DNA of 64,000 nt from a virus. Taxonomy: Duplodnaviria; Caudoviricetes. The notes under the pieces are model-generated. The model made no database searches, was not told the origin of the DNA, and saw only the letters and a list, made by a program, of their open reading frames with translations. Below are positions 1-43,068 of the stretch, piece by piece. The position numbers and the translations under genes are program-made. The first letter of the stretch is position 1, and each line of letters opens with the position of its first letter. The stretch lies in the IMG/VR virus record IMGVR_UViG_3300038345_000144; one strand, written 5' to 3'.

Positions 1-650
1 TTACCTGTTTCATTAAGGTTAGTGAACGGGTCATACTTGAAAGTACAAGCCCTTGCTGAAAATTCGTAGTAAGGCAACCCTGCTTGATTTGCATAGGACT
101 TCAAATCGTCAAGAATATCATCCTCACCTTTATAGTCTACGAATACAACAGGTCTTTTCTCGTCAATTCTCTGCTTAATAACGGCTTTCATTGTGGTTGA
201 CTTACCTGAACCAGTAGAACCAGTAATCAGGGTTGCACCACTCAAAATGACATCATCAAGGTCAAGACAACGCATATTGTACTTTAACTCGTTATGATTG
301 ACGGGTAAAATCCTACCCATACAGATATTTTTAGGCTTAATTAAGAACTTATTGACAGGAGCGAGAAGACTGAATATTCTATCGGAATAGTCCAAATCAG
401 CCCCCTCGCCTTGATGAATTTTTACCTTAATAAAGCATAGGAAAGCAAATAAAGCGACACAAGCCACTCCAATGATAATTTTGTACTTGGTTTCAGGGGC
501 AAATTTAGAAACTGCCCAAAAAGCACCTAAACTTATCACCACTTGGTCCAAGAAAACTACGGGCATAGTTTTCTTCTTAATCAAAATCAAGTTCTCAAAA
601 GCAACCAAGATAGGTAAGATTAGGCATATTAAGAAAATCTTACCTGCCAT
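1..650 (-). CDS. Type IV coupling protein (VirD4/TraG/TraD-like ATPase), N-terminal part; runs off the window
   Basis: Not in ORF track. Manual translation from ATG at 650: MAGKIFLICL..., N-terminal TM helices, Walker A LITGSTGSGKS (~198-230), then VFVDYKG and YDPF motifs typical of T4CPs. Confidence 0.8.
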   Translation of the reverse strand, partial: MAGKIFLICLILPILVAFENLILIKKKTMPVVFLDQVVISLGAFWAVSKFAPETKYKIIIGVACVALFAFLCFIKVKIHQGEGADLDYSDRIFSLLAPVNKFLIKPKNICMGRILPVNHNELKYNMRCLDLDDVILSGATLITGSTGSGKSTTMKAVIKQRIDEKRPVVFVDYKGEDDILDDLKSYANQAGLPYYEFSARACTFKYDPFTNLNETG

Positions 651-1086: not shown

Positions 1087-1527
1087 TTAACAAACTTCCG
1101 TTATTATCTGGTCTGTGGTAAATGTACCAAAGTATCTGGAGTCTTTAGAGTCCTGTCTGTTATCTCCCATAACGAAGTATTCATTCGGACCTAAAGTTAC
1201 TTCAAAATCTTCGGTAGTAGTGTTATAAGGGTCAATAACCTCTTCCCCATTGATATATAAGACATTATTCTCATACTTAATGGTCTCATTAGGCATACCA
1301 ATCACCCTTTTTACGATGATTTCACCCTTACTAATCGTTACCACATCAAATCGTTCAATCGTGTAATTTCGGGCGGTCAATAAGAACTGCCCGTCGTGAT
1401 ATGTCGGGTACATTGAGTCCCCAATCACGAACGCAATTGAGAAAAATAGGTTGAATATAAACATAGCCACAAATAATGCACCTACTATACAACCTATAAT
1501 CAATTTCTTTTTCTTTTGTTTATTCAT
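1087..1527 (-). CDS. lepB: Signal peptidase I (S26, short Gram-positive type)
   Basis: TM anchor, GDSMYPT (Ser), IVKRVIG (Lys), GDNR..SKDSR. Confidence 0.93.
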   Translation of the reverse strand: MNKQKKKKLIIGCIVGALFVAMFIFNLFFSIAFVIGDSMYPTYHDGQFLLTARNYTIERFDVVTISKGEIIVKRVIGMPNETIKYENNVLYINGEEVIDPYNTTTEDFEVTLGPNEYFVMGDNRQDSKDSRYFGTFTTDQIITEVC

Positions 1528-12169: not shown

Positions 12170-13777
12170 TTATGATGTCGGGGTATTAACATCTTCTTCG
12201 ATGTACCAATAACCGTTCCAATCCTGCATATTTATCATTGACTGATAATACTGTGAAGCAATACAGAAACTACTGTTATCAGCAGGTCCCTCAAATCCTC
12301 CCCAACGACCTAAACCACTATCAACGATATAGAAAGTACCGTCTTCGTATTTAGTCCATAACATACCGTGAGCCATATCACCATTACTTAATACAAAACC
12401 TACCCCAGAAGGGTGAGTTTGGAGTAAGGAGATTAACTCTTGTTGAGAGGATGGAGCACCACTCTTAACCACCAAAGTTGCAGTAACACCGTCAATCGTA
12501 ATTGACCTTGTGTAACTACCGCAATTTACATACCATCTTGCCCATTTTCCAGGTCCAAGACAACCGTAACCAAAGACATCATAAACCCATTCAGTATTAT
12601 AGAAACGGCTCGCACCGTAACCTGAAGTACCCATATCATAGACATCTTCAGAGTAGTAGTAACCCCAGTTAGGAATATTACCCCAAGTTGATGTCATTTT
12701 TGTTCTTGAGTAGTGCGAAGTCGCAAACTGATACCAAGAACCTGTTTCGCTCATATGTCGCCTGTTTCCCGTACTACCACCATCGGTATTATCGCCTGTT
12801 TCATAGTAACTTGTCGTTACGCAGGAGATATAGTGATACCAGTCCTGTGCAGATTGGCTGTTTTCAGGGAATGAACCTGAAGCCAATTCTCCATTATCGT
12901 CCCACAAATAATCAAAGAAATTGACACCATTTGCGGTGAAATAACGCATATACAGGTTTAATGTAGCACACGAAGTACAAGGACCAGAACCGTCCTGAAT
13001 GATATAGTGTCCATTAAGTTCCTCAAGGTTCAGACCGCCAGATTGACAGTATTGCTTATAAAGAGGGCTGTTTTTCATACCTCTTGTGGCTTCCAACTCA
13101 CAATAATAGTGAGGTGTCTGTCCAACAATCGAGAAAACTCCCTTAAAGAACAAAAATGCGTTCCATAGTAAAGTAACTACTGCCGTGATAATAAGCACCC
13201 ACTTGAGAATAGGCAAAAGTGCCTTGATTTTTTCCTTAATGGCTGTAACTCGGCTCTTAATACGCTGAACAACCTTCATATTGTTCAAGCCTTCTTTTGC
13301 CTTCTCTTTAGTGAGTGTCTTTTTGGCTTCCCTAATCTTTTTGAGTTGCTCTTTTTTCTCGGCATCGTTCAGTACATCAGTGTTATTGATGGCATCACGC
13401 CTGCGATTAAGGTCTTTTCTTCCGTTATTCCACTCTTTAATGGTTTTACCCTGTTTATAAGTAGTGGTGTCCTCAATCTCTGCCTTTTTGGTTTCGATTT
13501 TCTGTGAAATTTGACCTTTAAGACCACCTTGAGTAGGGTTGTTGTCTGTATTGAGTTTTTCCTGAATAGGAGCAGTATTGGCTTTAGACGCTATAATTTC
13601 TTGAGCCTTTAACTGCTCATTCTTATTAGCAGATTTCAAAGCCTCAACCTGTTTCTGGTATTCAGCCTCAATTTCCTTTGTCTTTTTAGCCCTTAACTGC
13701 TTTTCCTTTTCTCTTACGGCTTTAACATAATCGGAGTGGCTGTCAAATACTTGGTCATCCAAATAATATCTTGCCAT
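12170..13777 (-). CDS. Coiled-coil + TM + extracellular papain-like (C39-like) peptidase
   Basis: IQDGSGPCTSCA (Gln/Cys), AHGML (His), YIVDS (Asp). Confidence 0.6.
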   Translation of the reverse strand: MARYYLDDQVFDSHSDYVKAVREKEKQLRAKKTKEIEAEYQKQVEALKSANKNEQLKAQEIIASKANTAPIQEKLNTDNNPTQGGLKGQISQKIETKKAEIEDTTTYKQGKTIKEWNNGRKDLNRRRDAINNTDVLNDAEKKEQLKKIREAKKTLTKEKAKEGLNNMKVVQRIKSRVTAIKEKIKALLPILKWVLIITAVVTLLWNAFLFFKGVFSIVGQTPHYYCELEATRGMKNSPLYKQYCQSGGLNLEELNGHYIIQDGSGPCTSCATLNLYMRYFTANGVNFFDYLWDDNGELASGSFPENSQSAQDWYHYISCVTTSYYETGDNTDGGSTGNRRHMSETGSWYQFATSHYSRTKMTSTWGNIPNWGYYYSEDVYDMGTSGYGASRFYNTEWVYDVFGYGCLGPGKWARWYVNCGSYTRSITIDGVTATLVVKSGAPSSQQELISLLQTHPSGVGFVLSNGDMAHGMLWTKYEDGTFYIVDSGLGRWGGFEGPADNSSFCIASQYYQSMINMQDWNGYWYIEEDVNTPTS

Positions 13778-13795: not shown

Positions 13796-14086
13796 TTATG
13801 CGTTTCTGCAAAACTCGTCGTAACTCTTCTTTTCTTTGGTACTCAATCCTTCAGAAAGAGAGTCCATAATCTTTCTAATCTTTGCAGAAGTCGCCTTTAC
13901 AGAGACATCAATATTTGTGTCTTTTTCATCATAGCCAGAAATATCAATGAACTTTGTGCTTCCTTCTTTTCTTATCTGAAAGGATGCCCCCTCCATAGTG
14001 TGGCAACACTTTCTCTTGCCCACATTTTCAGGCTTTGCCCTACATTCAGAGCATCCATTTCCATCTTTTCTTGGTCTAATCGGCAT
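13796..14086 (-). CDS. Small protein with N-terminal C-x-A-x-PENxG-[KR]3-CCH motif
   Basis: 96 aa, AAGGAG RBS; motif shared with 27628-28845. Confidence 0.75.
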   Translation of the reverse strand: MPIRPRKDGNGCSECRAKPENVGKRKCCHTMEGASFQIRKEGSTKFIDISGYDEKDTNIDVSVKATSAKIRKIMDSLSEGLSTKEKKSYDEFCRNA

Positions 14087-14102
14087 AAGATTTCTCCTTT
14101 CA

Positions 14103-15695
14103 TTAGAGTATTGATGTTATCTTATAGTTACCGCTACCCATATCTTCAAGTTTCATATACATATAGATTTCGTATGAGAAACCTTGAGGGGTAGTAATTG
14201 AGTAAACACAATAAGCGTTAAATCCTAATGCGTTTGCCTCTGTATAGTAATAGAACTCGTCTATACCATTAAATGTTGCACCCCAAGTCTCAAATTGTCT
14301 GTAATTTGCAAAGACATTGGTTGTTGCTGTTCCAGTATAAAGTTGTGTCAAGATATTAGAAACTTTCGCTCTAATGTCCAAAGCACCTTCTTGGTCGCCT
14401 AACAACTTATTCTTATCAAACTTAAGATTATCAGAAGGAATTGTCGTATTGAAGTCCTGTCTAATTCTACTAAAGTCTGTCATATCCATTTCCTGTAAGG
14501 AGTACATAGCCATCTGACCACAAGCCTCGTAAGCACTTACGGCAGTTGTATATTCACTTGCATAGTGTCCTTCAGGAATTTCTTTTGTAAGTTTACCGTC
14601 AATATCGTAATACTTAACATATTCAACAGGAAGAGTAAATGCGTATCTAACTCTGATGACCTGACCTCTCTGGTAGATATTACCATTAGCAGTCATATAA
14701 TACTCAACAGTTGTACCATCATTACCCTGTTGCTGTGCTTCTGTAACAGGAGCATTAGGTTCAGGTGTAGGGGTAGGTGCAGGAGTATTTACGGGTTCAA
14801 GTGTAGGCTGTTCAGCCATAACAATCATACCGCCTTCGCCATCGAGTTTAGGCATCCAGTTCTCATCGAATTCTGCAACTTGAGCGTGGTTAGCACTGTC
14901 TAATTTCAATGTGCCATCTTCGTTTACTGCATAGTAATACATATGCCCTTCGGCATCAGTAGCAGGGCTACCATCTGTATTCTGTGCATAAACGAGGAAG
15001 TGTCCTACGCTGTCGGTCTTATTTGTACCATCTTCATTGAGTTGATAGAACAAAAATCTTCCGTCAACTGTGACAATAGGAGCACCGTTAGCCATCTTGA
15101 TACAGTTAGCAGGAGCAGTATTTGTCTGACCCTGTTCAACTGGTGCGTCAGGCTCTTGTTGTGCATTAAGACCACTCTTCATTAACTGGTTGATTAACTC
15201 TTCATCAGTAATTCTGATGTCTTTTTCAACCATAACAACATCTGCACTGAAGAATACCTCGACCATAGTATTTGAATACTTCTTAATCTTGGAAACTTCT
15301 ACTGTATCAGGGTCAATATTTGCTGATACATAAGTATTTCTGTTGTATTGAACATACTGCTGGAATAATGAGTCAGCATTATCTCTTACATAGTTCGGAA
15401 TACCCTCACAAGGGAACTTGTTACCAACACTATTAGCAATCGCTCTGACCTCTTCCTGTGTCAAAGGGTGCTTAAAGAATGTGTTATAAGTACCAAATGT
15501 GAGTAAAGCAACACCAAATATCGTCAATAATGAAATAACGATAAATTTACTGGTCTTTTGCTTCTTGTGAAGGGCAAGTATCTTTCTCTGCCTCTCCATT
15601 TGGCTCTGCTGAATAGCCTCTTCGATTTCTCTCTGCTTTTGTGCCTCTTCAGCCTGTACCTGTTCTGGAGTTTTGGATAGGTTTAACTTTGCCAT
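14103..15695 (-). CDS. TcpC/VirB8-like conjugation protein with inserted DG-x4-D-x2-G repeats
   Basis: Coiled-coil N-terminus, one TM, two alpha/beta domains split by NEDG..KTD..G repeats and PT linker; transfer context. Confidence 0.55.
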   Translation of the reverse strand: MAKLNLSKTPEQVQAEEAQKQREIEEAIQQSQMERQRKILALHKKQKTSKFIVISLLTIFGVALLTFGTYNTFFKHPLTQEEVRAIANSVGNKFPCEGIPNYVRDNADSLFQQYVQYNRNTYVSANIDPDTVEVSKIKKYSNTMVEVFFSADVVMVEKDIRITDEELINQLMKSGLNAQQEPDAPVEQGQTNTAPANCIKMANGAPIVTVDGRFLFYQLNEDGTNKTDSVGHFLVYAQNTDGSPATDAEGHMYYYAVNEDGTLKLDSANHAQVAEFDENWMPKLDGEGGMIVMAEQPTLEPVNTPAPTPTPEPNAPVTEAQQQGNDGTTVEYYMTANGNIYQRGQVIRVRYAFTLPVEYVKYYDIDGKLTKEIPEGHYASEYTTAVSAYEACGQMAMYSLQEMDMTDFSRIRQDFNTTIPSDNLKFDKNKLLGDQEGALDIRAKVSNILTQLYTGTATTNVFANYRQFETWGATFNGIDEFYYYTEANALGFNAYCVYSITTPQGFSYEIYMYMKLEDMGSGNYKITSIL

Positions 15696-15722
15696 ATATA
15701 AAAATTACCTCCAATTCAAAAG

Positions 15723-16085
15723 TTAAATGGTTATTTTTCCAGCGACAATATCATCTAAATATTGTCCTGCTTCGTCCTCTGACATAGATAAACTATCAGC
15801 GTCAAAGGAACTTGTTTGCTCAAATAAGCACTCGGCTACTATCTGTTCCTCTTCGTTTGGAGCGACTAACTCTCTCATTTCGGCAAGGCTACTGTAATAA
15901 GTAGCAATAATGCTTTGAGCCTCTTTATTCCACTCTCCGTCACTATCTTTCCAATCTCGAATGTCAATAGTATCAGTTGAGGAAATCATAAGGTCATCGG
16001 CTTGATTAAACTCGATGAATTCATAGGTGAATTTGTCTAACTTACGACAAATCTGAAAATCGTCAGTTGCGAACCAATCTTCCAT
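15723..16085 (-). CDS. Acidic hypothetical protein
   Basis: 120-aa ORF in operon. Confidence 0.7.
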   Translation of the reverse strand: MEDWFATDDFQICRKLDKFTYEFIEFNQADDLMISSTDTIDIRDWKDSDGEWNKEAQSIIATYYSSLAEMRELVAPNEEEQIVAECLFEQTSSFDADSLSMSEDEAGQYLDDIVAGKITI

Positions 16086-16086
16086 A

Positions 16087-16476
16087 TTATTTTCCCTTTC
16101 TCTGTAAAAATATCAAATATCCTTTATCTATATCATCATCGTCTATCGGGATAATATCAGCAGGGTTTTCGGGATTAGGACGGAGCCACACTCGATATTC
16201 AGTATCGTCTAAAGCCTTTTCCTGCTCTACCAGATATTTCATCATATCCGTAGCCTGAATGAAGTGTCTGTTGTCAATAAGGTCGATGATTTCATTGATT
16301 ATATCCATCTGACTACCAGCCAAATGCTCATCCCTGTCATCATTGTACCCGTCTTCCAGTGATACCAGACATTCTTCTCTCAAATCGTCATCTATCTCGC
16401 TTACACCACGATTACGGAAATCTTCAAAAATATCGTACAAAAGTTCGATAATCAAATCAGCATTAACATTAGCCAT
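16087..16476 (-). CDS. Acidic hypothetical protein
   Basis: 129 aa, AAGGAG RBS, follows motif copy 2. Confidence 0.7.
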   Translation of the reverse strand: MANVNADLIIELLYDIFEDFRNRGVSEIDDDLREECLVSLEDGYNDDRDEHLAGSQMDIINEIIDLIDNRHFIQATDMMKYLVEQEKALDDTEYRVWLRPNPENPADIIPIDDDDIDKGYLIFLQRKGK

Positions 16477-16520
16477 ATCCGTATGTGTTCTCCTTTGCTG
16501 TTTATCTTCTCATAATTCTA

Positions 16521-16547
16521 TTATATATAAATAGTCGTTCATTTTAA
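16521..16547 (-). promoter_or_regulatory. Element-specific motif copy 2
   Basis: TTAAAATGAACGACTATTTATATATAA, 45 nt upstream of ATG 16476. Confidence 0.7.
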
Positions 16548-16613
16548 TCAAAATGACATATTGCCAGACCGCCCGTAGCGTATCTGTAACATTCGACTCA
16601 TTGTATTCAAAGT

Positions 16614-16656
16614 AAAAGGGGAACTACACTTTTTACGGTGTAATTCCCCTTCTTTT
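16614..16656 (-). terminator. Intrinsic terminator after giant adhesin
   Basis: AAGGGGAACTACAC/GTGTAATTCCCCTT hairpin with T-tracts on both strands. Confidence 0.75.
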
Positions 16657-16690
16657 AACCTAATTTATGCGATTTCTCGCTTAATTTTGG

Positions 16691-19600
16691 TCATTCTTCG
16701 GGATTTTCGTTAGAATTTCCCTCGATTGAGGCAGAATTAGCCTCGATAGCACTCTTTTTTTTGCCTTTTACGACAAATACCGTTGTAAGTCCAACAGCAC
16801 CTACTATGATGAGTGCTACAAGAGCCATAATAGGCATTGAGTCACCAGTCTTCGGTGTCGGAGGAATAATGATTGCTCTATCAAATACGCTGATAGGGAT
16901 AATCTCTTCCTTACCGTAGTCTGTTGTAGAAACAGGCTTAATCTGGTGCTTATCAGTGTTGAGGTTATAGCCAGCAGGGGCTTTGGTCTCCATAGCGTAA
17001 TATGTCTGACCCTCAACATATCTGATAACGAACTCAATCTTACCTTCGCTATTTGTTAAGCCTACGCAATCGTTACCGTTAACATCCTTTGCAACCTTAC
17101 CGTCGCCTGTGTAAACAGTGATTTCAGCGTTTGCAAGATAATACTTGACATTATCACGGTCCATCTTTGCAATAGAAACTCTCAAATAGTGAGGTCTATG
17201 GATTGTCTGATTTTCGTCATTCAAATCCTTGTGCATATCGAATACGAAGCCAGTCTTGGAAGTCAATGTCTCGAAAGCAACAATCTGGTTAGGCTTTACG
17301 AATTCCTGTTCACCAGTCTCTTCGTTAGTCCTGTAATAACCGAATGTGCCAGAGTCAACATCCTTGAACTCAACTACATAATCGCCGTCTGCGGTTTCAG
17401 GTACATAAGTGAGTGTCTGGGTGAGTGCTTCACCGCCCTCGCTTCTATACAACTGTGAACCTGTCTCTTGGTCAACGAGAGAAGCAGTTACATTGTAAGT
17501 CTCGCCAACTACGAGGTCGTGGTGATGAACTGTATCAGCATAAGTCTGTACTGTGTTATCAAGTACCAACTTGTTGTCGAAGTCGTCACCATCGTTCTCA
17601 CCCTTGACTACAAGGAGAGTTGTCTCAAGTTCAGGCTTGAAATCAATGTTCTGGTTCTGGTCGGTTACATCTTCGTGAGACGAAATCTGAATTTCCTTCT
17701 CAACCATAGGTGTAGTATCGTCGTTATCGTCGTCAACCATAGCCTTGCAGTACATATACTCGAAACATACAATCCTTACGGGCTGTCCGTCATTACAGAG
17801 TTTTGTACTGTCGATGTCAGAGAAGTAGACATATTCAGTGCCTTCTCTGGAAGTTGCTGTGAAAGTAGTATCGGAGTCACCGTCAAATAACTTCTCTCCA
17901 AGTGTACCGTCAGCCTTAACTTCCCAAATCTGACCTCTGAATGTGTACTCTGTTCCCTCGCTTGCGTTCTCGTAGTCCACCTTATCACGAATGACAACGG
18001 CTGTACCCAAAGAACCTCTGTGAGAGTTAGATGCTACATCAATGAGTGTTGTGTGAAGTGTAGGAGGTACGATAGTAACCGTCTGGTTCTCGTCCTTCAA
18101 ATCTTCGTGAACAGCAATCAAAGTGCCATCTGAAGCGTAAATTCTCTCGAAACATACAATCTTGATAGTTTCAAGTTTATTCTCGCTTGCGTTCCACTTA
18201 ACGAAGTCTACTGTATCTACCTCGAAAGGTACATTAGCAACACATTCGTTATGGTTCTCGGCAGTAGGTACGAACGATACTCTATTTGTGTAAGGCTTGT
18301 TAGTATCTCTGTCGATAAGTTTCTCACCAGTTTCGCCGTTAACAAGGACTGCTTCGGCGTAGTAAGTCTCACCAACATTGAGGTTAGTAGTCTTAACAGC
18401 ATCATTCATAGGAACATTCTCACCGATAGGTGTAAGGTGTGAACCAGAAACCGTATCAACGAATGTTGTAGTTACTGTCGGAGGTACGATTGTTACAGTT
18501 TCTAATGTGTCTGCAACATCGCAGTGGTCTGCTCTCTGTCCATCATAGATGTCAAAGTCGCTATCCCAGTCACAATATACATAAACTACAAGGTCTTTTG
18601 CAGTAAATGTTACTGTACCGTCTGCGTTCTCAACACCCTCAACGAGTTTAGCAGAGTTAACATTCTCGAAAGTTACCTTTGTTGTACCGTCTTTTGCTTC
18701 AGGTACGACGCTTACAGTTGCATTAGAGAGAACTGTATTGAGGTCATCCTTTGCATACAACTCTGCACGGAAAGTATATCTTCCAGTAGGAGCAAGGTTG
18801 TAATACTTGATAGTATCATCAAGACTTACTATATTACCTACTTCAAGAGTATGATTACCGTTATGAATTGATAATGCTTCGGTCTCAATCTTAATAGGAG
18901 CATTATACATAACAAAGTTCTGTACTTTTACTTCTACTACATTCTCAACAGGCTGTAACTGGTAGTCATCATCCATATAGAGTTCTGCCTTACCACTTGC
19001 GTCAACCTGCATATCAGGATATTCGATTGCGAAAATTGCTTGGTCGGGCTTAACCGTAGGCTCACCATTTGCATCTGCGAATGAGTAACCATAAGGAAGT
19101 TTAGACTCAACTACAACATAATTTCTATGCTCGAACTGTCCTGTTGTGCTATTCCAAACGTGATATGCTCTCAACGGGTCGGAAACATACTTACCCTGTG
19201 CATCGTCCCACCATACTCTTGCCTGACGATATGTGCCAAGTGGCTTACCGTCAACATAGACTTGGTTGCCGTTTGCATCGAGTTGGTTCTGCCAGTTACC
19301 ATCGACATCATAGTAGCCGAGGGCAATCTGCTCGAACATCTGCTTGCCGTTTGCATCGAGTTGAGGCTCGAATGTCATAGCGATTTCATCCTGCTCGTCC
19401 CACTCACCTTCTACTGAACCATTATCATAGTAGATAGTAAATTCAGCGTTCTTGATAGGCTCCTTTGTTTCAGAGTCTAACTTCTCGATTGTGATAGGTG
19501 CAGAATATGGTTCGTCATACAACTTAACTTCAAAGATGTCATCTGTAATAGAACCGTTATTGTTGAGGTCATAAATAGTAACAAATCTATAACCTGTGTC

Positions 19601-22600
19601 AAGATAGTAACCGTCAGCAGTGATGATTTCTCTTACTGCATACTGTCCAGACTTCAAGCCGTTGAAAGCAACGATACCAGAATGAGGACGGTCAACGATA
19701 GTTCTTACATTATCCTTCTCTGCTCCAGTGATTTTACCATCTTTGTTGGTATCACTATAAAGTTCGAAGCGGATAGCATAATTACCCTCGTAAGGTCTCT
19801 TTTCGCCTGTGAACGGGTCAATGACGATAGGCTCGCCTGTCCAAGTATCATACTTGTTAGCATATACAGGGACATCCATTACATTAACGACATAGAATAC
19901 CTCTTCTGTCTGGTCAACTAACTTAACAGTTGCTCTTGCTTGAGGGTCGGCTCCTCTATTAGAGTGGAAACGAACCTCCATATTATTAGTGTTCTCGCTG
20001 ATACGATACCAACCAGCAGGAATATCCTCAAGGTGAATGTTACCGTTTATATCAGTAAGTCTAATAATATAAGTATGTGGCATTTCGTTATAGGCAGGCA
20101 TACCGATTGCTTCCATTTCGGAAGAGTCCATATCCCAATAAGCCTTATCGAGATTTCCACCGTACTCGAACAAGAACTCATAACCTGCAAGGCTGTTTCT
20201 GTCATCGGTGTTATCCTCTGACCATACCTTGTTAAGGTCAATGTCTCCATACATTAAGTGGTTCTGTACTGCGTAAGTTACGCTGTCCTCACCAACAGCC
20301 ATCTTATGTGCTGTATCTTCAGGTGAGTCAAAGTGCATTTCCCACATAGTATTGAAGTAACTGCTCTGTGTCCAAGAACTGCTGTTGTAAATCTGTGCAG
20401 TTGTTGAAGTAGCAACATTCGGATAAGGAATACTGCTTGCAGTACGAGGTGTGTTTACACGGCTTGTTGTACCATTCTGTGCTGTGACAATCTCGTAAAT
20501 CTCGCCTGCGATGTCATAAACACCGTTAGATGCAGGAGGGTTAGAGTCATTATCATTGTCATAAGCATATTCAGGTACTTCGAAGATTTCATAGATATAG
20601 TATGTCTTATCATATACTAATCCATAAAGTCTATCCCAACCGTCAGGAAGAGCGTTTCCTGCACTGTCGTACCACTGGTCTTCACCAAACTCATAGTAAC
20701 CAACGAGGTTAGTTTGAGCCTTCATATAGTCTTTCAAGAGGTTCTGACCATTCTTCTTTGCTTCCTTCAACTGTGCCATTGTGAATGTCGGATAACCACC
20801 AGCAAGAGGACCACTTGTGATAAAGAAAGTCGTTGTATTGATGTCAAAGTGATAATCCGTAGAGTCATTCTGACCGTTGTTGTTAACATCGAGGAAAGGT
20901 GTATCAGTAGACTTGAAGACCTTGCCACTCATCGAGTCTTCATAATAGAAGTTATCAATGTTATTAGAAATAACAATGTTCTTGCCCTCATACTGTGCCT
21001 GTCCGTCGTCAGAGTAGTTGTGACTCTGATGAGCGTGGTAGTTAGTAATTTGAACACTATAAGGTGTTGCAATCTGACCACCAGACATTGTGTATGTGAG
21101 TGTACCGATGTGTGTTGTCTGTGAAACATTTGTCAAATCAATCTGGACTGTGTAAACACTTTCAGTATCTAACAATTCAGTCTGGTTCTGTTCAGGAATG
21201 TTCCATTCGTTACCGTTGTTGTCCCTCAAGATTGTAGGGGCTTTTGTTTCCTTTACATAAACCTTCTCATTGTAGTTGAATAAGAGGTCTCCACTCTCAC
21301 TTACAGTGTAACTTGTAGGAGAGAATGTGAGGTAATCACGCAAATTACCTGCCTGTGTAGAAACATAGTGACCATCATTATTGTCGGTTAATGTCATAAT
21401 AGGCTGTGTGCAAGCCTCATCATAATAGAGAGTGAACTCTGCACCAATATATGTCCAACCATTATAAGCCTTCTTATTGAGATAGAAGTCAAACTCGGCA
21501 TTTGATGGATAGTCGGTTGCTTGAACCTTTACGATTTCTACATCAGTTGGCTCTTCGCCAGAAGCGACATCCAATTCGTGACAAGCAGTTACAGTAAAGT
21601 TCAACTTTTCACCCTGTACGCCAGAAGTGAAGTTATAGTACATACCACCGTAGAACATAGACTGGTTAACTGTCTGTCCTACAAACTGTGTGATAAGTGT
21701 ACCAGAGTTTGTTGTACCGTCAGGGTAAGTACCAGCGTTAGCAATATCGTTAGTCTCCGTAGGTCTAATTTCCGTTGCATAGAAATCACCAGTAGGAAGT
21801 CTGAAATACTGTGAACCGCCTGTAAGTCTTACAATAGGTGCAACATTCTCATCAGGCTTGATGTCATCAGGATAAGTAACAGACTTCATTTTACCATATT
21901 CGTCAAGGACTACAACAGCATAAAGTTTGTTCTCTGCCTGTGAGTAAATACCATAAACAGTATTATCAATAGAAGTTCCTTGTTTATAACCGTTAAGAGG
22001 TGCATTTACACCAGTAGGAAGGATATTTTCCTTCTCAATTGCGGCATAACCATAAACTACCTTATCGTTGAATGTTACACAAAGACTATCTGCCTGTGCA
22101 GGGTACTGACGAACATAGAGAGTGTTTCCCATAGGACCATTATTAGTCTCGTTATTATAGAAATACAACTGCTCTAAAGGTTCATCAGGCTGTCCATTTA
22201 CTGCCTGTGAAACTACCATACCAAACAAAGGTGTGTTGTTGAGATAATAGAACTCATTTGTAGAAGTTTCTCTAACAATATAAGTACCAAATCTCATAGG
22301 AGGTTGACCTTGAGTAAGGGCAAATTTAGGGCAAGTAAGTCCGTTAATTGTGACCATACCATAGTCTTTTGTTCCCTGACCTGTGCAAGTAAGTGTAGTA
22401 GTGTCAGTAGGTGTATGTGTGTCAAAGTATTCCTTTAATGCAGTAGAGTCATTATAAACTCTAATATTCTCTGTTACAGAATTTGCATCATAGAAATAAT
22501 CATCATAATAGTAAACAGTAAACTGAATACCATCAGTAGTTGCGGCAGAAGGAGCGTTTACTTCGTCCCACTGCTCATCGTCTTCCTTCTTAACCTTCTG

Positions 22601-25600
22601 CTGGATAGGGTCTCCATCAGGGTCATCCTTTACTAATACGCAGATAACAGCACCATCGTCAGCAACTCCACCGCCCTGAACAGGGTAAGTAGGGTCGTAG
22701 AACGCAGTTGTATAGTCTACTGCGTGTGGGTTAAAGTCATAAAGATAACCACTGTTGTAGTTATAACCATTAAAGTTACGAACAGGAAGAGTTCCATCGT
22801 TCTCATAAACATTCCAGTTATTAGCAACAATATCATCTACTGTTAACTTAATAGCCTGTGTCTGACCACCAGTTTGACCCATAGGCTGTGTAAACTGATA
22901 TGTCTTGTTGTTACCTTCCATACGGAAAGTAAGACCTTCCATAGAGTAACAATTTGTGTAAGAACGGCTGTTTGCAGACTCTTTTGCTACATAAACATAG
23001 AGGTTAGTGATTACAGGAATGTCAAGACCGTTAACGTGGTATTGAGCATTGTATCTCTTAAACTGACCTTCAATCTGGTTCTGCTGGTTGCTATGAGAAT
23101 ATACCCAAACTTGATAATCATACCACTGTGAGTATGGAGTACCACTCGGATAAGTAAATGTGTTATCTACTGCCTGACCACCACCAAATGTGATAGTAGC
23201 ACCAGCACCAAGCACACCAAAGTTAATTGCACTTATGTTAGTTGCATCAATTGTGATGTTCCAATCACTATAAGTAACACGAAGTCCTGTATTAGCAGTA
23301 TTGATAGTATCAATATACTGAATAAGTGCCTTCTGTGCATCAGGAGCAACATCATCAGAATTAACAACCTTATTACCTGTGTGCTTATCAATAACACTTA
23401 CAGGAAGTGTATAAGTCTGACCAGGAATGATAAGAAGTTTACCATCAACAAGTGTCTGACCAGTATAGTCAATAGCAATATCATAGGTAACCTTTGTATC
23501 AAAAGTACCAGAATTGCTAAAACTACTTTCATTAGGAACACCTACTTCGGTTCCCCTAACAGAAATACCAGCACCATCACATAAGTATTCCCAAACCCAA
23601 GCCTGTTTTTCATCGTTATCATAAGAAGAATAACCTAAAACAAGTGAGATGTCGTGAACATTATCGTGATTATTAGCAGTATCATAAGGCAAATAAGAAA
23701 CCTTTGTACTCTTTGCATCAGGTTCAGCATATTCAGCAAAACCCATAACTCTATAAGGGTGTTCAGTGTGTCCATTTACTGTGGCAGTAGGATATGTTTC
23801 GTGCGGTTGAGCACAATATGTTCTATTTGTGTGATTTCCAGAACTATTGAAACCATTACCATATCCATCGTACCAACCACTACCATCTACACGAACAGCA
23901 TAACCATTTCTTTGCTTATTACCAATGATTGACTCATTAAGATTATCGGCAATAGTCTGATAATTAACTGTTTCAGTAGAAGATGATACACCTTCACCAA
24001 CGAACTTGTACGACTTTGTTCCTAAGTTATACAAGCCTCTTAAAGTCTGGTTGGCTCCCTGTGTAGTTAATCCGTGGTTAGTATCACTTACCGTTGCGTG
24101 GAACTGAATATTCCACTTATGCTCCATCTTATAATCCCAAGTCATAAAGACATTGTAAACATCTCCATATTCTTGAGCATAAATAGTACCGTGAGATATA
24201 TTGAAATCATATGTTGCTTTATGACTGTCTACAACAATACCTGTTATATCATCAATATCATTAGCAACATCATTAGTTCTACTCTGGTTAACAGATTGAG
24301 CACTATCACAAATATCCTTAAATACATCGCTAATATGGTTATAGTCTGCCATAATGGAATTACGCTCAATATCAATAGCGATGGCTCTATCGGAGTACGA
24401 TGCTGGAATATTATTCTGTCTTCGATACTCATTTATTTGGGCTTTAGTAACTTGGTGTGTATAAGGATTACCTGTGGATTGACCTGAACGACCAATAACA
24501 CCATCACCACTATTATCAAGTGAACCTGAAATAGTAACTTTAGTGCCATTATATGTTGTTTTATTTATTCCTAAAACATCTTCATCTTCTGGCTCGTAGG
24601 TATATTGAGTACCTGTGCTATAAAAAGTATTTCTATTTGCACAGCCAAGTCCCCAATAATCTGTATTATAGTCATCAGGAATTTCTGGCTCATCATCAAC
24701 AATAGGTGTGAGTGAGAAATTTTCCCAATAAGATACAGTATTTGAAATCTTACCTGCAATAAAAAGTGAAGCCGCATCTGAAGTAGAGTCAGCAACTACA
24801 TAATAATTAGCGTCAAAGTTAGACAATACATTCTTTGTACGGTCTGCATTAACAGCACCAATTGAATATGTAGCACAATTAGCAGGAATATACTCGCTTG
24901 CAGACTTATTGTTGTTACCTGCGGAAGCGACTACTGTAATGCCCTGTGTCTTACATTCCTCAATAAGAGACTTAAATGCGTCATATTCACCATTATCTCT
25001 TACAGAAATAGCAAGGAGAATATAATCTACATTCATTTCCTTTGCGAACTGAACAGCATTGTAAACATCAGAAATATTACCGTGACCGTCATCGCCAATG
25101 GCTTTGATTGAAATAATATAAGCGTCACTTGTATTGTTAAGAATGTTATTTACCATTCTTGTACCGTGACCGTTTCTATCATATCCATCATCACCATCAA
25201 GAATACAATAAGCCTCATTTGCAAGGTCGGAACCTGTATCAATAACGGCAACCTTAACAGTAGCGTCAGGGTTGATTTCAGCGTTACCATAACCAACAGA
25301 ACCAGTACCACAAACGGCTACATCACCGTCGATAGAATACTCATAACCCTTGTTTGCACAATAAGTAATGGCATTAAGATACTGTGACTGGTCAACAAAA
25401 CTAATTACATAAGTACCGTCAAAGTAAACACCAAAATCAGGATTAAGGTCCTTACTAATATCAGCCTTTGTGTTGATGATAAGTTTTGTACCAGACATTC
25501 CTGTGATATAGGTTACAAACTCTTCAAAAGATGTTGCAAGAACAATATTTGAAGGCTTGACCGCCTCTATCTTTGTAAACTCATATTCGTTAGATGTGAG

Positions 25601-26302
25601 ATAAGTAACAGCGTTGTTGAAAGCCTCTTCTGTGTTGAAGCAGAAGCAGTATTCACCATTAAAATATCTACCATCATCAAATGTGAGTTCTGTGAGGTCA
25701 TCTGTTGTAACAACATAAATCTTCCAAACATCGGAACCAATGGAAGCGATAAAAGCGTCATATTCGCTACCAGTCTCACAAACAGGAACACAAGTAATCT
25801 CTACTTCAGGTGTTTCCGTAGGAGTAGGTGTAGGAGTCTCGGAAGGCTCTGTTGTTTCAGAAGGCTCTGTGGTCTCTGATGTTTCGGAACTTTCAGTAGG
25901 CTCTGTTGCTTCAGTTGTTTCTGAAGGCTCTACTGTTGTAGGCTCCTCTGTATCAGAAGGCTCTGTTGCCTCTGTATTATCAGATGCCTCTGTTCCCTCT
26001 GTTGTAGGGGGAGCAGTCGAGTCGATACTATCTGAAGGTTCAGTAGTATCAATAACTGTTTCAGGTGTGGTCTCGTCAACAGGCTCCGAATACTCGGTTT
26101 CAGCCCCGTGTACTGGAGTGGTTTCAACAACAACCGTAGCCTGTGTACCGTCATCTGAATTTGCATTACTCTCAACAATCTGTGTCTCTGAAGGAGGAGT
26201 TATCTCATCGGCAATTACCTTTACTTCAGGGGCAATAGGAGCAAGTGCAATAACGGTAGCAAGAATACCTGATGTTATCTTCTTTCTAAAGTTTAATTGC
26301 AT
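16691..26302 (-). CDS. 3203-aa cell-wall-anchored adhesin: S8 subtilase-like, thioester (TED), SpaA/CnaB isopeptide and VaFE/T-Q ester domains, sortase signal
   Basis: Signal peptide; E/T/P linker; VAVIDTG, NGHGT, SAGN, STSDAA; YCAQP and QAWVW; repeated Y.v.EtkAP.GY; four HxDxxDxx(Q)T-like repeats; PKTGD+TM+KGKKK. Confidence 0.88.
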   Translation of the reverse strand: MQLNFRKKITSGILATVIALAPIAPEVKVIADEITPPSETQIVESNANSDDGTQATVVVETTPVHGAETEYSEPVDETTPETVIDTTEPSDSIDSTAPPTTEGTEASDNTEATEPSDTEEPTTVEPSETTEATEPTESSETSETTEPSETTEPSETPTPTPTETPEVEITCVPVCETGSEYDAFIASIGSDVWKIYVVTTDDLTELTFDDGRYFNGEYCFCFNTEEAFNNAVTYLTSNEYEFTKIEAVKPSNIVLATSFEEFVTYITGMSGTKLIINTKADISKDLNPDFGVYFDGTYVISFVDQSQYLNAITYCANKGYEYSIDGDVAVCGTGSVGYGNAEINPDATVKVAVIDTGSDLANEAYCILDGDDGYDRNGHGTRMVNNILNNTSDAYIISIKAIGDDGHGNISDVYNAVQFAKEMNVDYILLAISVRDNGEYDAFKSLIEECKTQGITVVASAGNNNKSASEYIPANCATYSIGAVNADRTKNVLSNFDANYYVVADSTSDAASLFIAGKISNTVSYWENFSLTPIVDDEPEIPDDYNTDYWGLGCANRNTFYSTGTQYTYEPEDEDVLGINKTTYNGTKVTISGSLDNSGDGVIGRSGQSTGNPYTHQVTKAQINEYRRQNNIPASYSDRAIAIDIERNSIMADYNHISDVFKDICDSAQSVNQSRTNDVANDIDDITGIVVDSHKATYDFNISHGTIYAQEYGDVYNVFMTWDYKMEHKWNIQFHATVSDTNHGLTTQGANQTLRGLYNLGTKSYKFVGEGVSSSTETVNYQTIADNLNESIIGNKQRNGYAVRVDGSGWYDGYGNGFNSSGNHTNRTYCAQPHETYPTATVNGHTEHPYRVMGFAEYAEPDAKSTKVSYLPYDTANNHDNVHDISLVLGYSSYDNDEKQAWVWEYLCDGAGISVRGTEVGVPNESSFSNSGTFDTKVTYDIAIDYTGQTLVDGKLLIIPGQTYTLPVSVIDKHTGNKVVNSDDVAPDAQKALIQYIDTINTANTGLRVTYSDWNITIDATNISAINFGVLGAGATITFGGGQAVDNTFTYPSGTPYSQWYDYQVWVYSHSNQQNQIEGQFKRYNAQYHVNGLDIPVITNLYVYVAKESANSRSYTNCYSMEGLTFRMEGNNKTYQFTQPMGQTGGQTQAIKLTVDDIVANNWNVYENDGTLPVRNFNGYNYNSGYLYDFNPHAVDYTTAFYDPTYPVQGGGVADDGAVICVLVKDDPDGDPIQQKVKKEDDEQWDEVNAPSAATTDGIQFTVYYYDDYFYDANSVTENIRVYNDSTALKEYFDTHTPTDTTTLTCTGQGTKDYGMVTINGLTCPKFALTQGQPPMRFGTYIVRETSTNEFYYLNNTPLFGMVVSQAVNGQPDEPLEQLYFYNNETNNGPMGNTLYVRQYPAQADSLCVTFNDKVVYGYAAIEKENILPTGVNAPLNGYKQGTSIDNTVYGIYSQAENKLYAVVVLDEYGKMKSVTYPDDIKPDENVAPIVRLTGGSQYFRLPTGDFYATEIRPTETNDIANAGTYPDGTTNSGTLITQFVGQTVNQSMFYGGMYYNFTSGVQGEKLNFTVTACHELDVASGEEPTDVEIVKVQATDYPSNAEFDFYLNKKAYNGWTYIGAEFTLYYDEACTQPIMTLTDNNDGHYVSTQAGNLRDYLTFSPTSYTVSESGDLLFNYNEKVYVKETKAPTILRDNNGNEWNIPEQNQTELLDTESVYTVQIDLTNVSQTTHIGTLTYTMSGGQIATPYSVQITNYHAHQSHNYSDDGQAQYEGKNIVISNNIDNFYYEDSMSGKVFKSTDTPFLDVNNNGQNDSTDYHFDINTTTFFITSGPLAGGYPTFTMAQLKEAKKNGQNLLKDYMKAQTNLVGYYEFGEDQWYDSAGNALPDGWDRLYGLVYDKTYYIYEIFEVPEYAYDNDNDSNPPASNGVYDIAGEIYEIVTAQNGTTSRVNTPRTASSIPYPNVATSTTAQIYNSSSWTQSSYFNTMWEMHFDSPEDTAHKMAVGEDSVTYAVQNHLMYGDIDLNKVWSEDNTDDRNSLAGYEFLFEYGGNLDKAYWDMDSSEMEAIGMPAYNEMPHTYIIRLTDINGNIHLEDIPAGWYRISENTNNMEVRFHSNRGADPQARATVKLVDQTEEVFYVVNVMDVPVYANKYDTWTGEPIVIDPFTGEKRPYEGNYAIRFELYSDTNKDGKITGAEKDNVRTIVDRPHSGIVAFNGLKSGQYAVREIITADGYYLDTGYRFVTIYDLNNNGSITDDIFEVKLYDEPYSAPITIEKLDSETKEPIKNAEFTIYYDNGSVEGEWDEQDEIAMTFEPQLDANGKQMFEQIALGYYDVDGNWQNQLDANGNQVYVDGKPLGTYRQARVWWDDAQGKYVSDPLRAYHVWNSTTGQFEHRNYVVVESKLPYGYSFADANGEPTVKPDQAIFAIEYPDMQVDASGKAELYMDDDYQLQPVENVVEVKVQNFVMYNAPIKIETEALSIHNGNHTLEVGNIVSLDDTIKYYNLAPTGRYTFRAELYAKDDLNTVLSNATVSVVPEAKDGTTKVTFENVNSAKLVEGVENADGTVTFTAKDLVVYVYCDWDSDFDIYDGQRADHCDVADTLETVTIVPPTVTTTFVDTVSGSHLTPIGENVPMNDAVKTTNLNVGETYYAEAVLVNGETGEKLIDRDTNKPYTNRVSFVPTAENHNECVANVPFEVDTVDFVKWNASENKLETIKIVCFERIYASDGTLIAVHEDLKDENQTVTIVPPTLHTTLIDVASNSHRGSLGTAVVIRDKVDYENASEGTEYTFRGQIWEVKADGTLGEKLFDGDSDTTFTATSREGTEYVYFSDIDSTKLCNDGQPVRIVCFEYMYCKAMVDDDNDDTTPMVEKEIQISSHEDVTDQNQNIDFKPELETTLLVVKGENDGDDFDNKLVLDNTVQTYADTVHHHDLVVGETYNVTASLVDQETGSQLYRSEGGEALTQTLTYVPETADGDYVVEFKDVDSGTFGYYRTNEETGEQEFVKPNQIVAFETLTSKTGFVFDMHKDLNDENQTIHRPHYLRVSIAKMDRDNVKYYLANAEITVYTGDGKVAKDVNGNDCVGLTNSEGKIEFVIRYVEGQTYYAMETKAPAGYNLNTDKHQIKPVSTTDYGKEEIIPISVFDRAIIIPPTPKTGDSMPIMALVALIIVGAVGLTTVFVVKGKKKSAIEANSASIEGNSNENPEE

Positions 26303-26513
26303 TTCGAAATTACCTCAATTCTTTCTTTAATCTTTGCAAAAATTAAAAAGTATTAGTAGTTCTTTCGTTAGTGTCTTATAAAATCCTCGCTCAAATGGTT
26401 TGTATTGGTCTTACCACTAACTATAAGTTACTTGCCATCGAACTCTCTACTGCATTATGCCTACATTAGTAAACATTCATTATCACTTCCTTTCAAATGC
26501 TCTTTACATTCAC

Positions 26514-26535
26514 ATATATAAATAGCCTTTCATTT
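26514..26535 (-). promoter_or_regulatory. Element-specific motif copy 3
   Basis: AAATGAAAGGCTATTTATATAT upstream of adhesin. Confidence 0.6.
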
Positions 26536-26622
26536 ATAACATAACTATATCTCTATTGTAAACCCATAGAGCGAACATTTTTAGAGATTTTTGTATGATA
26601 TATGTCAAAAGGCTATAAAAAG

Positions 26623-26794
26623 TTAAGATTTTGGGTTGGGATTTGTCCCCCAACACACAATTTGTTTGTCGGCTGTAATTTCAGGCAGGGTCAGAGAAAA
26701 TAGGCTTTCAATAAATCCTTTGTCAGAACAACCTCCGTAATACGGAGGAAAACGACCCACCGTGAAACTACATATTTCTCTACCAAAATCTTAA
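26623..26794 (-). ncRNA. Candidate structured RNA (~172 nt) of unknown family
   Basis: Perfect 12-bp terminal stem, internal helices, two potential pseudoknots; G-U pairs favour minus strand. Confidence 0.5.
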
Positions 26795-26798
26795 GCAA

Positions 26799-26830
26799 GA
26801 AAAAGCCCTTGAGGAAATCTCTCAAGGGCT
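26799..26830 (-). terminator. Intrinsic terminator/attenuator hairpin
   Basis: AGCCCTTGAG-N7-CTCAAGGGCT followed by TTTTCTT. Confidence 0.75.
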
Positions 26831-26888
26831 GTTGTTTCAGTCAAGTATTATTATGTGAGATTACCTAAACAATAAGTATATAAACTTA

Positions 26889-26910
26889 TTATATATAAAT
26901 AGTCGTTAAT
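26889..26910 (-). promoter_or_regulatory. Element-specific motif copy 4
   Basis: ATTAACGACTATTTATATATAA. Confidence 0.7.
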
Positions 26911-26915
26911 TCGTA

Positions 26916-27536
26916 TTAAGCACAACGAACAGCAATATGATACATTACTGTGCTTCCAGATGTTGCATTAGTTAAAGTAACTAAATAATAGTAACCTGTT
27001 TCAACCAATTCTGAAGGAATAGTCATTGTATATGTGCCATCACTATTTTCAAGAGTACACTTATCAGTAATGCCTTCTACACCTTCCAATTCAAGACGAT
27101 TAGCAACCTTAAGAGCAATCTCGTCATTCATTAAAGTAGAACCTGTGGCTTCTGTAAACTTTGCTACTGCATAAAGCGTATAAGTTTCAGAGGACTTGAA
27201 GGAGAATGTGATATTCTGACCTGCCTCATAAATAGGTCTGTCAGGATATTCAAAACCATTATCCTCGGCTACTGTCAAACGAGCAGAACCCCAATCAAAA
27301 TTAGAAGCACCTTCTACCTCTGCATAATTATCAGGAGTAAACGGATTTTCCTTTGTTGTTTCTACTGTGGTCTCTGAAGGAGTTGTCTCCGACTCTGAAG
27401 GAGTGGTTTCTGTTTCAGTAACCGTTGTAGTAGGCTCTGTTGTAACTGTTGTAGGTGTGGGCTGACCACAAGCCGTAACTCCAAATACCATAGCACCGAT
27501 AAGTGCTGTTGCTGTTAACATTCTAAACTTTCTCAT
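26916..27536 (-). CDS. Lipoprotein with Thr/Glu-rich linker
   Basis: Lipobox VTAC after hydrophobic stretch. Confidence 0.8.
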   Translation of the reverse strand: MRKFRMLTATALIGAMVFGVTACGQPTPTTVTTEPTTTVTETETTPSESETTPSETTVETTKENPFTPDNYAEVEGASNFDWGSARLTVAEDNGFEYPDRPIYEAGQNITFSFKSSETYTLYAVAKFTEATGSTLMNDEIALKVANRLELEGVEGITDKCTLENSDGTYTMTIPSELVETGYYYLVTLTNATSGSTVMYHIAVRCA

Positions 27537-27627
27537 TTTTATTTCCTTTCTCTATGCCCCAGTTGGGCTAACACCAATGGTGTTTTTAACTTTTGTTTGC
27601 AACCCCCGTAATACGGGGAACTTTCTT

Positions 27628-28845
27628 TTATGCTGGCTTCTTTGTGCCATCGCTATATATAGCATAAGTTGAGTAAGAACCAGGTTCATATCCGTGGTTA
27701 TCACAATATGTGTAATACTGGTCAATACAGTTTGAAGAGGAACTACCTGTTATTACAATTCCTGTAACCTTATTGCCGTCACCGTCATAAGCCGAACCTC
27801 TTAACTCATAACCTGTGATTGTAGGTGCAGGCTTCGGCGTAGGTGTCGGAGGTACAGGTGTAGGAGTAGGAGCCTGTGTCTCTGCTGTTGTAGGAGCAGG
27901 TTCAGTAGGTGCAGGCTCGGTAGGAGCAGGCTGTGTAGGTGCAGGTGCGGTTGTCTCCGTAGGTGCGGGCTGTGTAGGCTGTGTTGAACCACCATTTCCG
28001 CTACCAGATGAACCACTACCAGAACCACTGCTTCCAGAACCAGAAGAACCACTACCAGAACTGCTGGAACCTGAACCAGATGAGCCACTTCCTGAAGAAC
28101 CACTGCCAGATGAACCAGAGCCAGATGAACTTCCACTACCAGAAGAACCTGAACCAGAGGAACCGCTACCAGAAGAGGAACTTCCGCTACCAGAACTTGT
28201 AGAGCCTGATGTAGAAGAACCTGTACCAGAAGGTGTACCCTGTGGTGCTTCATAGGCTCTCTGACCAGATGCGTAATCTGCTCTTACCCAGTCAACCATA
28301 AACTGTGCGGCACTGTCATTGTTTTCATAACCAGTGTTAATAAGGGCTTCTTTGATTTCCGCATCGGACTTGCCTTGAGCAACCATATCCCAAGCCATAT
28401 TGTAGTCATATGCACATCGTTCATCTTCAGTCATTTCAGTACCACTGGAATAACCTGCCGACTGTGCCTCTGAAAGTGTCATAGCAGTAAGACCTGACTT
28501 ACCTTCGATAGCAGGGTCTCCTGCTGAATAATAACGACCACCATAGATGTAAACTACTTCTTCGGTGGTTTCATTTGTTGTTGCTGTTGTTGCTTCGGTA
28601 GACTCCGTAGGAACGGTATCTACTGTAAAAGTACCATCAGGAACAGATGACTCAACAGGTGAGGTTTCTGTCGGAACGGTATCTGCACCTGTGCTACAAG
28701 CAGTTAAGGCAATAGCAGTAAGAACAGCGATTGATGCCTTTGTAGCCATATCACCAATATGACAGCATCTTTTTCTGCCTATATTTTCGGGTGTTGCGGA
28801 GCAAAGGCTCTCACCACCGTCAATTCTTGCTCGTCTAATTTTCAT
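27628..28845 (-). CDS. Ser/Gly- and Pro/Thr-rich lipoprotein with N-terminal Cys/His motif
   Basis: AAGGAG RBS, CSATPENIGRKRCCH, then signal with LTAC lipobox, SGSGSS and PTEPA repeats. Confidence 0.75.
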   Translation of the reverse strand: MKIRRARIDGGESLCSATPENIGRKRCCHIGDMATKASIAVLTAIALTACSTGADTVPTETSPVESSVPDGTFTVDTVPTESTEATTATTNETTEEVVYIYGGRYYSAGDPAIEGKSGLTAMTLSEAQSAGYSSGTEMTEDERCAYDYNMAWDMVAQGKSDAEIKEALINTGYENNDSAAQFMVDWVRADYASGQRAYEAPQGTPSGTGSSTSGSTSSGSGSSSSGSGSSGSGSSGSGSSSGSGSSGSGSSGSGSSGSGSSSSGSGSSGSGSSGSGSGSSGSGNGGSTQPTQPAPTETTAPAPTQPAPTEPAPTEPAPTTAETQAPTPTPVPPTPTPKPAPTITGYELRGSAYDGDGNKVTGIVITGSSSSNCIDQYYTYCDNHGYEPGSYSTYAIYSDGTKKPA

Positions 28846-28920
28846 TTATATCTCCTTCCGCATCAAATGAAATGTAATTTTCTTTCATTTGAGTGTAAAT
28901 GATTTTCATTTGATAATTTC

Positions 28921-43024: not shown

Positions 43025-43051
43025 ATTTTTGTGAATATTTCCTTTCGATTA

Positions 43052-43068
43052 TTATATATAAATAGTCC
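43052..43068 (-). promoter_or_regulatory. Element-specific motif copy 6
   Basis: GGACTATTTATATATAA, 28 nt upstream of Mre11 ATG. Confidence 0.7.

Follow-up and report, generated by a model that had tools for sequence, protein, structure and literature searches.

The window, that is, the whole stretch of 64,000 nucleotides (64 kb) analysed here from the IMG/VR virus record IMGVR_UViG_3300038345_000144, contains on its minus strand two open reading frames (ORFs), one for a small protein of 96 amino acids (aa) at 13796..14086 (-) and one for a lipoprotein precursor of 405 aa at 27628..28845 (-), which have only their first ~29 residues in common, a cysteine- and histidine-containing segment hereafter called the tag. 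The 96-aa protein, the 'home' of the tag and a member of a conserved family (alignment A4, 57 sequences), is composed of the tag, a beta-hairpin and two C-terminal helices. The 405-aa precursor, as delineated from the ORF and its orthologues, consists of the tag, a signal peptide, a Thr/Glu-rich linker, a globular part, Ser-Gly and Pro-Thr repeats and a small C-terminal domain. Residues 4-29 of the two proteins align in BLASTP with 15 of 26 positions identical (E 6e-8), and outside these residues the proteins are unrelated. Codons 1-32 of the small protein gene, delimited by ORF and BLASTP, form the first tag copy (13991..14086, -) with C12, C15, C27, C28 and H29; the second copy (codons 1-32; 28750..28845, -), likewise delimited by ORF and BLASTP, has a glutamate at position 12 followed by C15, C27, C28 and H29. 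The DNA of the aligned stretch, tag and flanks, has diverged between the copies and the Cys and His codons differ synonymously, so that the likeness is an old one, preserved in the protein, and no recent duplication. A six-frame motif scan detected no third tag copy in the window.

Both ORFs are preceded by a ribosome-binding site (RBS), which reads AAAGGAG in front of the 96-aa ORF (14094..14100, -; 7 nt ahead of the ATG) and GGAAGGAG in front of the 405-aa ORF (28852..28859, -; 6 nt ahead of the ATG of the tag), the latter being conserved at four orthologous loci. Just upstream of the tagged start of the lipoprotein gene, a promoter-like site TTTACA-17-TACATT (28871..28899, -) is proposed by consensus match. 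The original prediction that a tag is shared by two otherwise unrelated proteins, each behind an RBS, has consequently been borne out by the alignment, while its description as one Cys/His tag holds for the likeness over ~29 residues and fails for the Cys patterns, which are unequal owing to the Glu at position 12 in the 405-aa copy.

Behind the tag, the 405-aa protein continues with MATKASIAVLTAIALTAC, in which residues 33-50 (28696..28749, -), read from the translation and kept in orthologues, provide the core and lipobox of a lipoprotein signal peptide. Hydrophobic residues occupy positions 38-46, and L47-T48-A49-C50 agrees with the lipobox pattern [LVI][ASTVI][GAS]C; in orthologues the lipobox is LTAC, LAAC or LVAC. 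In place of a short basic n-region stands one of ~37 residues, which comprises a conserved module with a predicted fold, and the entire signal peptide comes to 49 residues, whereas lipoprotein signal peptides are usually ~15-35 residues long. Lipoproteins are generally cut by signal peptidase II just before the lipobox Cys, and the 405-aa protein would be expected to be cut before Cys50. The next gene (ORF at 26916..27536, -) encodes a lipoprotein of 206 aa, whose signal peptide is of the ordinary, tagless kind and which serves as an internal control; since this signal peptide is short and conventional, the tag is no general export requirement in the element.

The tag is kept in frame in the orthologues P0029, P0176, P0178, L050, L051 and L052. 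In two of these, L051 and L052, codon 33, which specifies an internal Met in the window, is GTT and no start codon, so that translation must begin at the tag; equally, the GAAGGAG site ahead of the tag ATG is kept in both, and no usable RBS precedes Met33 in the window. Nei-Gojobori counts of the window gene against its orthologues gave a ratio of non-synonymous to synonymous changes (dN/dS) for the tag of 0.11 versus L030 and of 0.03 versus L051 (13 synonymous and 3 non-synonymous changes), compared with 0.11-0.23 for the mature part and 0.15-0.33 for the signal peptide over all pairs. By these counts, the tag is the most constrained part of the 405-aa gene. Placement of the tag ahead of a complete lipoprotein signal peptide with LTAC lipobox and its role as the true start had both been predicted, with a start at the internal Met as the refuting case; both claims have held, the second one through codon 33 of L051 and L052 and the retained RBS and ATG of the tag. 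The repeat region of the same protein (Ser-Gly, Pro-Thr; window 27800-28260) varies in length, with orthologues of 386-405 aa, and these different lengths suggest a rapidly changing spacer.

A profile of 34 positions (A2) was built from the two window copies and six copies of related loci. Searched against 1.84 billion representative proteins, it matched 62 clusters at E<=1e-3, including 15 at E<=1e-10, with matches that almost always begin within the first nine residues of the protein; a second search in a set of 5.8 billion returned 370 clusters at E<=1. Of the 179 member sequences collected, 177 have the fixed Cys at residue 11-23, and the other two are over-long gene calls in which a Met immediately precedes the tag; the spacing C-x11-C-x-H is equally found in 177. 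G9, C15, C27 and H29 are invariant and R4, G11, S13, V22, G23 and K24 are at least 90% conserved. The fixed core reads R..K.G.G.S.C-x11-C.H and is often extended by the Cys of a CxxC ahead. This first Cys, at position 12, is present in 126 of 179 members (70%) and otherwise mostly replaced by Y, F, V or M; the lipoprotein copies have Glu, Val or Phe instead. The residue separating the last Cys from the His is freely variable. Conserved basic residues (R4, K24, R/K26) are accompanied by an acidic pair in the loop, a possible fourth metal ligand beside the three possible ligands that are fixed (C, C, H).

No Pfam-A, NCBIfam or PHROG match covered the tag in the window proteins and 13 other carriers. 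A profile sequence search of the PDB returned solely a chance KKKCCHIGD word in a nucleotidase, and no usable fold match was obtained with the model of the 96-aa protein and the lone tag against the PDB (Foldseek, VIA-align) or with the 96-aa model against the Atlas. Equally, a language-model look-alike search gave no lead, tblastn of phage and plasmid collections with the tag and the protein P0033 gave chance-level matches or none, and megablast of 24 kb of the window gave nothing. One narrow peptide pattern run through 185,579 species genomes hit a single, spurious site in a stop-filled Morganella frame, and a scan of viral contigs for the GKGRCNH variant was without match. A third large protein search, with A4 and directed at longer proteins, was dominated by chance word matches and yielded one protein. 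The tag represents a real and statistically solid family, of which none of the libraries and collections covered by the present searches has a description. As a small Cys/His knuckle passed around among mobile-element proteins, it belongs to a known kind of object; what is new is that it is used strictly at the N-terminus and on carriers so diverse. A high-GC contig (L053:2374-3234) encodes a Pro/Ala-rich 287-aa protein that starts with the second half of the tag only (C-R-A-K-P-E-N-V-G-K-G-R-C-H-H), and because of this half tag the core motif may extend past the present element family.

The AlphaFold2 (AF2) model of the 96-aa protein has a mean predicted local distance difference test (pLDDT) value of 80.8, with 88-93 over the tag. 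Modelled alone, the tag retains a pLDDT of 80.4 and forms a beta-hairpin (3-6/12-14) and a short helix (19-21); AF2 thus confidently predicts a segment that folds on its own. A prediction for a complex of the small protein, the tag of the lipoprotein and 2 Zn scored 0.03 against a mark of 0.32, which allows no verdict. Zinc binding by the tag is plausible from its residues, and of the module of ~30 aa with bound zinc initially proposed, the module has stood while the zinc part has been weakened, as only C, C and H are fixed.

The majority of the family members are a single cytoplasmic protein of ~95 aa composed of tag, beta-hairpin and two helices and encoded in the gene block for transfer and cell envelope; fusions to other proteins are thus the minority. 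The tag heads CCA-adding enzymes of two lineages (P0013, P0031, L019), the family of the 405-aa lipoprotein, a second and unrelated lipoprotein of 714 aa (P0035) with an LAGC lipobox that is encoded beside a giant adhesin gene in L020, a bitopic membrane protein, a HEAT-repeat protein and three HExxH proteins, for which a weak lead to Peptidase_M78 is the only one. One protein carries two tags in tandem. A 307-aa protein equally starts with the tag; its remainder matches best the bridge-helix region of the largest subunits of RNA polymerase, with weak E-values of 0.16-1.1 and agreement among the four top matches, and a beta-like gene is located 1 kb from its gene. In this locus (L032:10001-11781) the tagged protein resembles a bridge-helix/trigger-loop piece of a split RNA-polymerase beta', an ORF overlapping the 307-aa gene shows a weak split-intein match (gp41-1, E 0.33) and SbcCD-like genes are found nearby, as in the window (41990-45522).

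The fused tags are nearest to small-protein tags of different sublineages (92%, 83% and 79%) and not to other fused tags, and the CCA-adding enzymes of two sibling elements begin without a tag; several independent captures follow from these two observations. Other genes of the element have received copies of the first ~32 codons of the small-protein gene at their 5' ends on several independent occasions. Three complete relatives were compared: in two of them the CCA gene is untagged and located 3-4 kb from the gene of a TraD-like ATPase in the block of the small protein (G002:C1:319293-320588 and 323658-324257; G003:C1:333037-334062 and 329248-329847), and in the third it is tagged and far from the ATPase gene (G001:C1:427766-429187 and 99132-99737).

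The gene of the small protein, in turn, keeps the same place at every related locus and is flanked by two membrane-protein genes in all of them, in the order giant adhesin, one or two small genes, membrane protein of ~530 aa, tag protein, protein of ~390-530 aa, proteins of ~180 aa and ~1100 aa, and YdjM. In the window, the conserved upstream neighbour is a single-pass membrane protein of 530 aa (14103..15695, -), defined by its ORF and the related loci. The conserved downstream neighbour is a 535-aa protein (12170..13777, -) with only weak hydrolase-like matches and, in an orthologue, a faint Peptidase_C39_2 match; it consists of a Lys/Glu-rich coiled coil, one membrane segment and a Cys/Trp/Tyr-rich C-terminal domain, with faint papain/C39-like and CD1108-family matches, and may serve the transfer system as cell-wall hydrolase. 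Between the two tagged genes lies the gene of a giant surface adhesin of 3203 aa (16691..26302, -), the orthologues of which match Pfam SpaA and TQ. A GC-rich hairpin of 10-11 bp with T-runs (window 26804-26830), terminator-like on both strands, separates the adhesin gene from that of the untagged lipoprotein. The N-terminal part of a TraD-like coupling ATPase (3..650, -; NCBIfam SXT_TraD, E 1.4e-9) is encoded on the same strand 13 kb downstream of the small protein, and a signal peptidase I gene (E 1.4e-31) and a weak MobC/Replic_Relax-like gene (window 1087-1527 and 1539-2621) adjoin it at the end of the block. Orthologues of the ATPase with 53-62% identity occur in all three complete elements on the strand of the small protein, at a distance of ~17-19 kb in G002 and G003 and of ~91 kb in G001.

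Related contigs reach 350-504 kb, and the family comprises circular, plasmid-like elements of 330-500 kb from rumen and gut metagenomes. Three IMG/VR records of 332, 394 and 467 kb are circular and complete, as terminal repeats indicate, and each has a VirB4-like AAA_10 gene; no match to the HK97 capsid (PF05065), Terminase_6N (PF03237) or T4SS-DNA_transf was found in them, two capsid/terminase families having been tried. These records (loci L012, L013 and L014; 332-467 kb), although filed as viral, look plasmid-like because VirB4-like and TraD-like genes are present and capsid/terminase-family matches are not. The sample labels STEW and SHIW among the relatives presumably denote rumen studies; one related locus stems from a human-gut assembly, and one tag member at NCBI is a hypothetical protein of a Bacilli metagenome-assembled genome. 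The expectation of a portable N-terminal module of ~30 aa on unrelated carriers and, through the profile searches, that of its confinement to giant elements of one family with their relatives are supported by these data. Of the further expectation of many tagged proteins per replicon, the N-terminal occurrence on diverse cargo has been recovered but not the number, since the three complete relatives carry one, one and two tags.

In kind, the host elements resemble the Inocles, giant plasmid-like elements of oral Streptococcus from saliva that are described as circular, ~245-370 kb in size and 24-32% in GC content, with genes of mostly unknown function and with VirB4 and VirD4 (PMC12340149). 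They differ from them in the GC content of 39% of the window and in the sample labels of the relatives, read as rumen/gut, and the disagreement in GC content led us to reject the published Inocles as host element; the passages of that publication (PMC12340149) considered here make no mention of the tag.

The tag shares features with several well-established systems and is identical to none of those considered. Like zinc knuckles and small zinc ribbons such as the CCCH site in ribosomal protein bL36, it has ~30-40 residues, a CxxC on a beta-hairpin, a second Cys/His pair and a basic character and folds by itself in prediction; unlike these, it fixes only C-x11-C-x-H, lacks the first Cys of the CxxC in 30% of members, is strictly N-terminal and is without match among solved structures. 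A likeness of RP.RDG...C-x11-C.C to the N-terminal zinc segment of RNA-polymerase beta' was discarded at an hhalign probability of 0.1% over 6 aligned columns, a comparison that amounts to a lead only. The membrane carriers of the tag recall zinc-binding anti-sigma (ZAS) factors in the succession of an N-terminal cytoplasmic Cys/His module, a membrane segment and an extracytoplasmic part. The ZAS domain is, however, helical, ~80 aa long and characterized by HxxxCxxC, a motif absent from the tag, which has a single terminal His after the last Cys, is predicted to form a beta-hairpin and occurs also on soluble enzymes; this identity was therefore rejected, and no sigma factor gene was found near the tag genes. 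A C fragment of a split intein was equally dismissed, since the tag ends in C-x-H and then variable residues instead of His-Asn followed by Cys/Ser/Thr, and its carriers are complete proteins.

As a short N-terminal label that is private to one system and borne by unrelated cargo, the tag is comparable to the capsid-targeting peptides of phage T4 and the encapsulation peptides of microcompartments, which, however, are without a Cys/His core and, in T4, are cut by the prohead protease; also, no capsid or shell gene was found in the three complete relatives, for which HK97 capsid and Terminase_6N were the two families tried. With type IV secretion substrates it has in common that its home gene shares a block with a TraD-like ATPase. 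The known signals of such substrates are C-terminal basic tails or internal relaxase domains, while the tag is an N-terminal knuckle predicted to fold, and its N-terminal position in 177 of 179 members excluded assignment to this known class. Finally, the second function besides export that is proposed for the tagged signal peptide has a parallel in the enterococcal sex pheromones, which are cut from lipoprotein signal peptides; in these, activity resides in the hydrophobic C-terminus of the signal peptide and is exerted outside the cell, whereas the tag is a basic N-terminal part on the cytoplasmic side.

As an autonomous module of ~30 residues, the tag is translated at the very N-terminus of its carriers; among the possible functions, we tentatively favour that of a cytoplasm-facing docking knuckle which brings the carriers to one shared partner at the membrane. 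With a metal ion, probably zinc, at its centre, the tag would form a small basic knuckle kept in the cytoplasm and act as a docking label that recruits its carrier to a shared partner at the inner membrane face, most plausibly the transfer or envelope machinery. On the lipoprotein and the other membrane carriers, it would hold the precursor at the docking site, and after the cut by signal peptidase II before Cys50, the tag with the stub of the signal peptide would stay in the membrane facing the cytoplasm. In three independent fusions the tag must remain cytoplasmic, as the next segment of the carrier crosses the membrane, and the home gene in the transfer block has membrane-protein genes on either side and shares its strand with the TraD-like ATPase gene; both observations support docking. 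Several points weigh against docking. The binding partner is hypothetical; with one or two tags per complete element, tags are few for a general address system; and the N-terminal placement could partly result from the capture of 5' gene ends rather than from functional need, a point to which the internal second tag copy of P0033 adds. The known type IV secretion signals are located C-terminally or internally and not at the N-terminus. Metal binding is deduced from the residues, of which only three ligands are fixed, and the lipoprotein copy is without the first Cys. A narrower proposal, in which the tag is a private N-terminal address label of the transfer machinery that leads soluble enzymes (tRNA CCA-adding enzyme, polymerase piece, peptidase) to the channel through which they would enter the recipient cell and has surface lipoproteins pinned there from inside, is clearly unlikely; if true, the label would be an N-terminal, metal-folded signal class of a Gram-positive type IV system.

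The conserved basic residues suit binding of nucleic acids equally well, and the CCA-adding enzyme and the RNA-polymerase piece act on nucleic acids, which also counts against docking and leads to its main rival, a nucleic-acid-binding knuckle. The knuckle would bind the element's DNA or RNA; the small protein would then be an accessory DNA- or RNA-binding factor of the transfer block, its fusions would add grip on the substrate and the membrane copies would tether nucleic acid. The strongly basic tag with its conserved R4, K24 and R/K26, the two carriers that work on RNA or DNA (the CCA-adding enzyme and the piece resembling RNA-polymerase beta') and the fact that small Cys/His knuckles often bind nucleic acids speak for such a role. 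Yet modules of this type are seldom restricted to the very start of a protein, one would hardly expect them on lipoproteins, a HEAT-repeat protein and HExxH proteins, and no sequence or fold likeness to a known DNA- or RNA-binding knuckle was found, so that we rate this explanation as possible and rather unlikely. That the tag marks proteins for loading into a particle or through a transfer channel into the next cell, as the capsid-targeting peptides do in phage T4, would agree with a short, strictly N-terminal and element-private segment on unrelated carriers, with soluble carriers that are useful on arrival in a new cell (tRNA-repair enzyme, polymerase piece, peptidase), with a CCA gene that is untagged near the coupling-protein gene (G002, G003) and tagged when far from it (G001), and with the filing of the relatives as viral by IMG/VR. 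Neither an HK97 capsid nor a Terminase_6N match in the three complete relatives nor a conserved cleavage motif after the tag was, however, found, and the lipoprotein and membrane carriers, being exported by Sec, are unfit as loaded cargo; loading is consequently regarded as highly doubtful.

An alternative use of the Cys/His chemistry is regulation, be it as a metal- or redox-sensitive N-terminal switch, as a degron or as a peptide released after the cut of the lipoprotein signal peptide. The location of the tag on the cleaved stub, which recalls the enterococcal pheromones, and its higher conservation than that of the mature protein are in line with this assumption, which leaves, on the other hand, the soluble carriers and the abundant free-standing small protein unexplained; no protease or regulator was found to be linked to the tag, and a regulatory or stability element is judged improbable. 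The tag of the lipoprotein might finally have no function of its own, being passively left over from the capture of a 5' gene end or lying in an untranslated frame upstream of a start at Met33. The fusions are indeed rare next to the small protein, and a captured 5' end with its RBS would alone explain the N-terminal position. The dN/dS of 0.03-0.11, codon 33 as GTT in two orthologues together with the lack of an RBS before Met33, and the retention of the tag in at least six orthologues nevertheless render this explanation exceedingly improbable, and on the grounds of these codon data a functionless remnant or a wrong start is largely excluded.

In gut and rumen bacteria, giant plasmid-like elements are made up almost wholly of genes without known function, and the tag, a recognizable and highly conserved small module, links proteins of such elements that are otherwise unrelated. 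It offers a practical entry point because its binder should reveal a hub of the biology of the element, and the module is ready for addition to domain databases. In addition, a folded, conserved module ahead of a lipoprotein signal peptide that is more constrained than the mature protein itself is unusual and suggests that the discarded end of a signal peptide can carry a function of its own.

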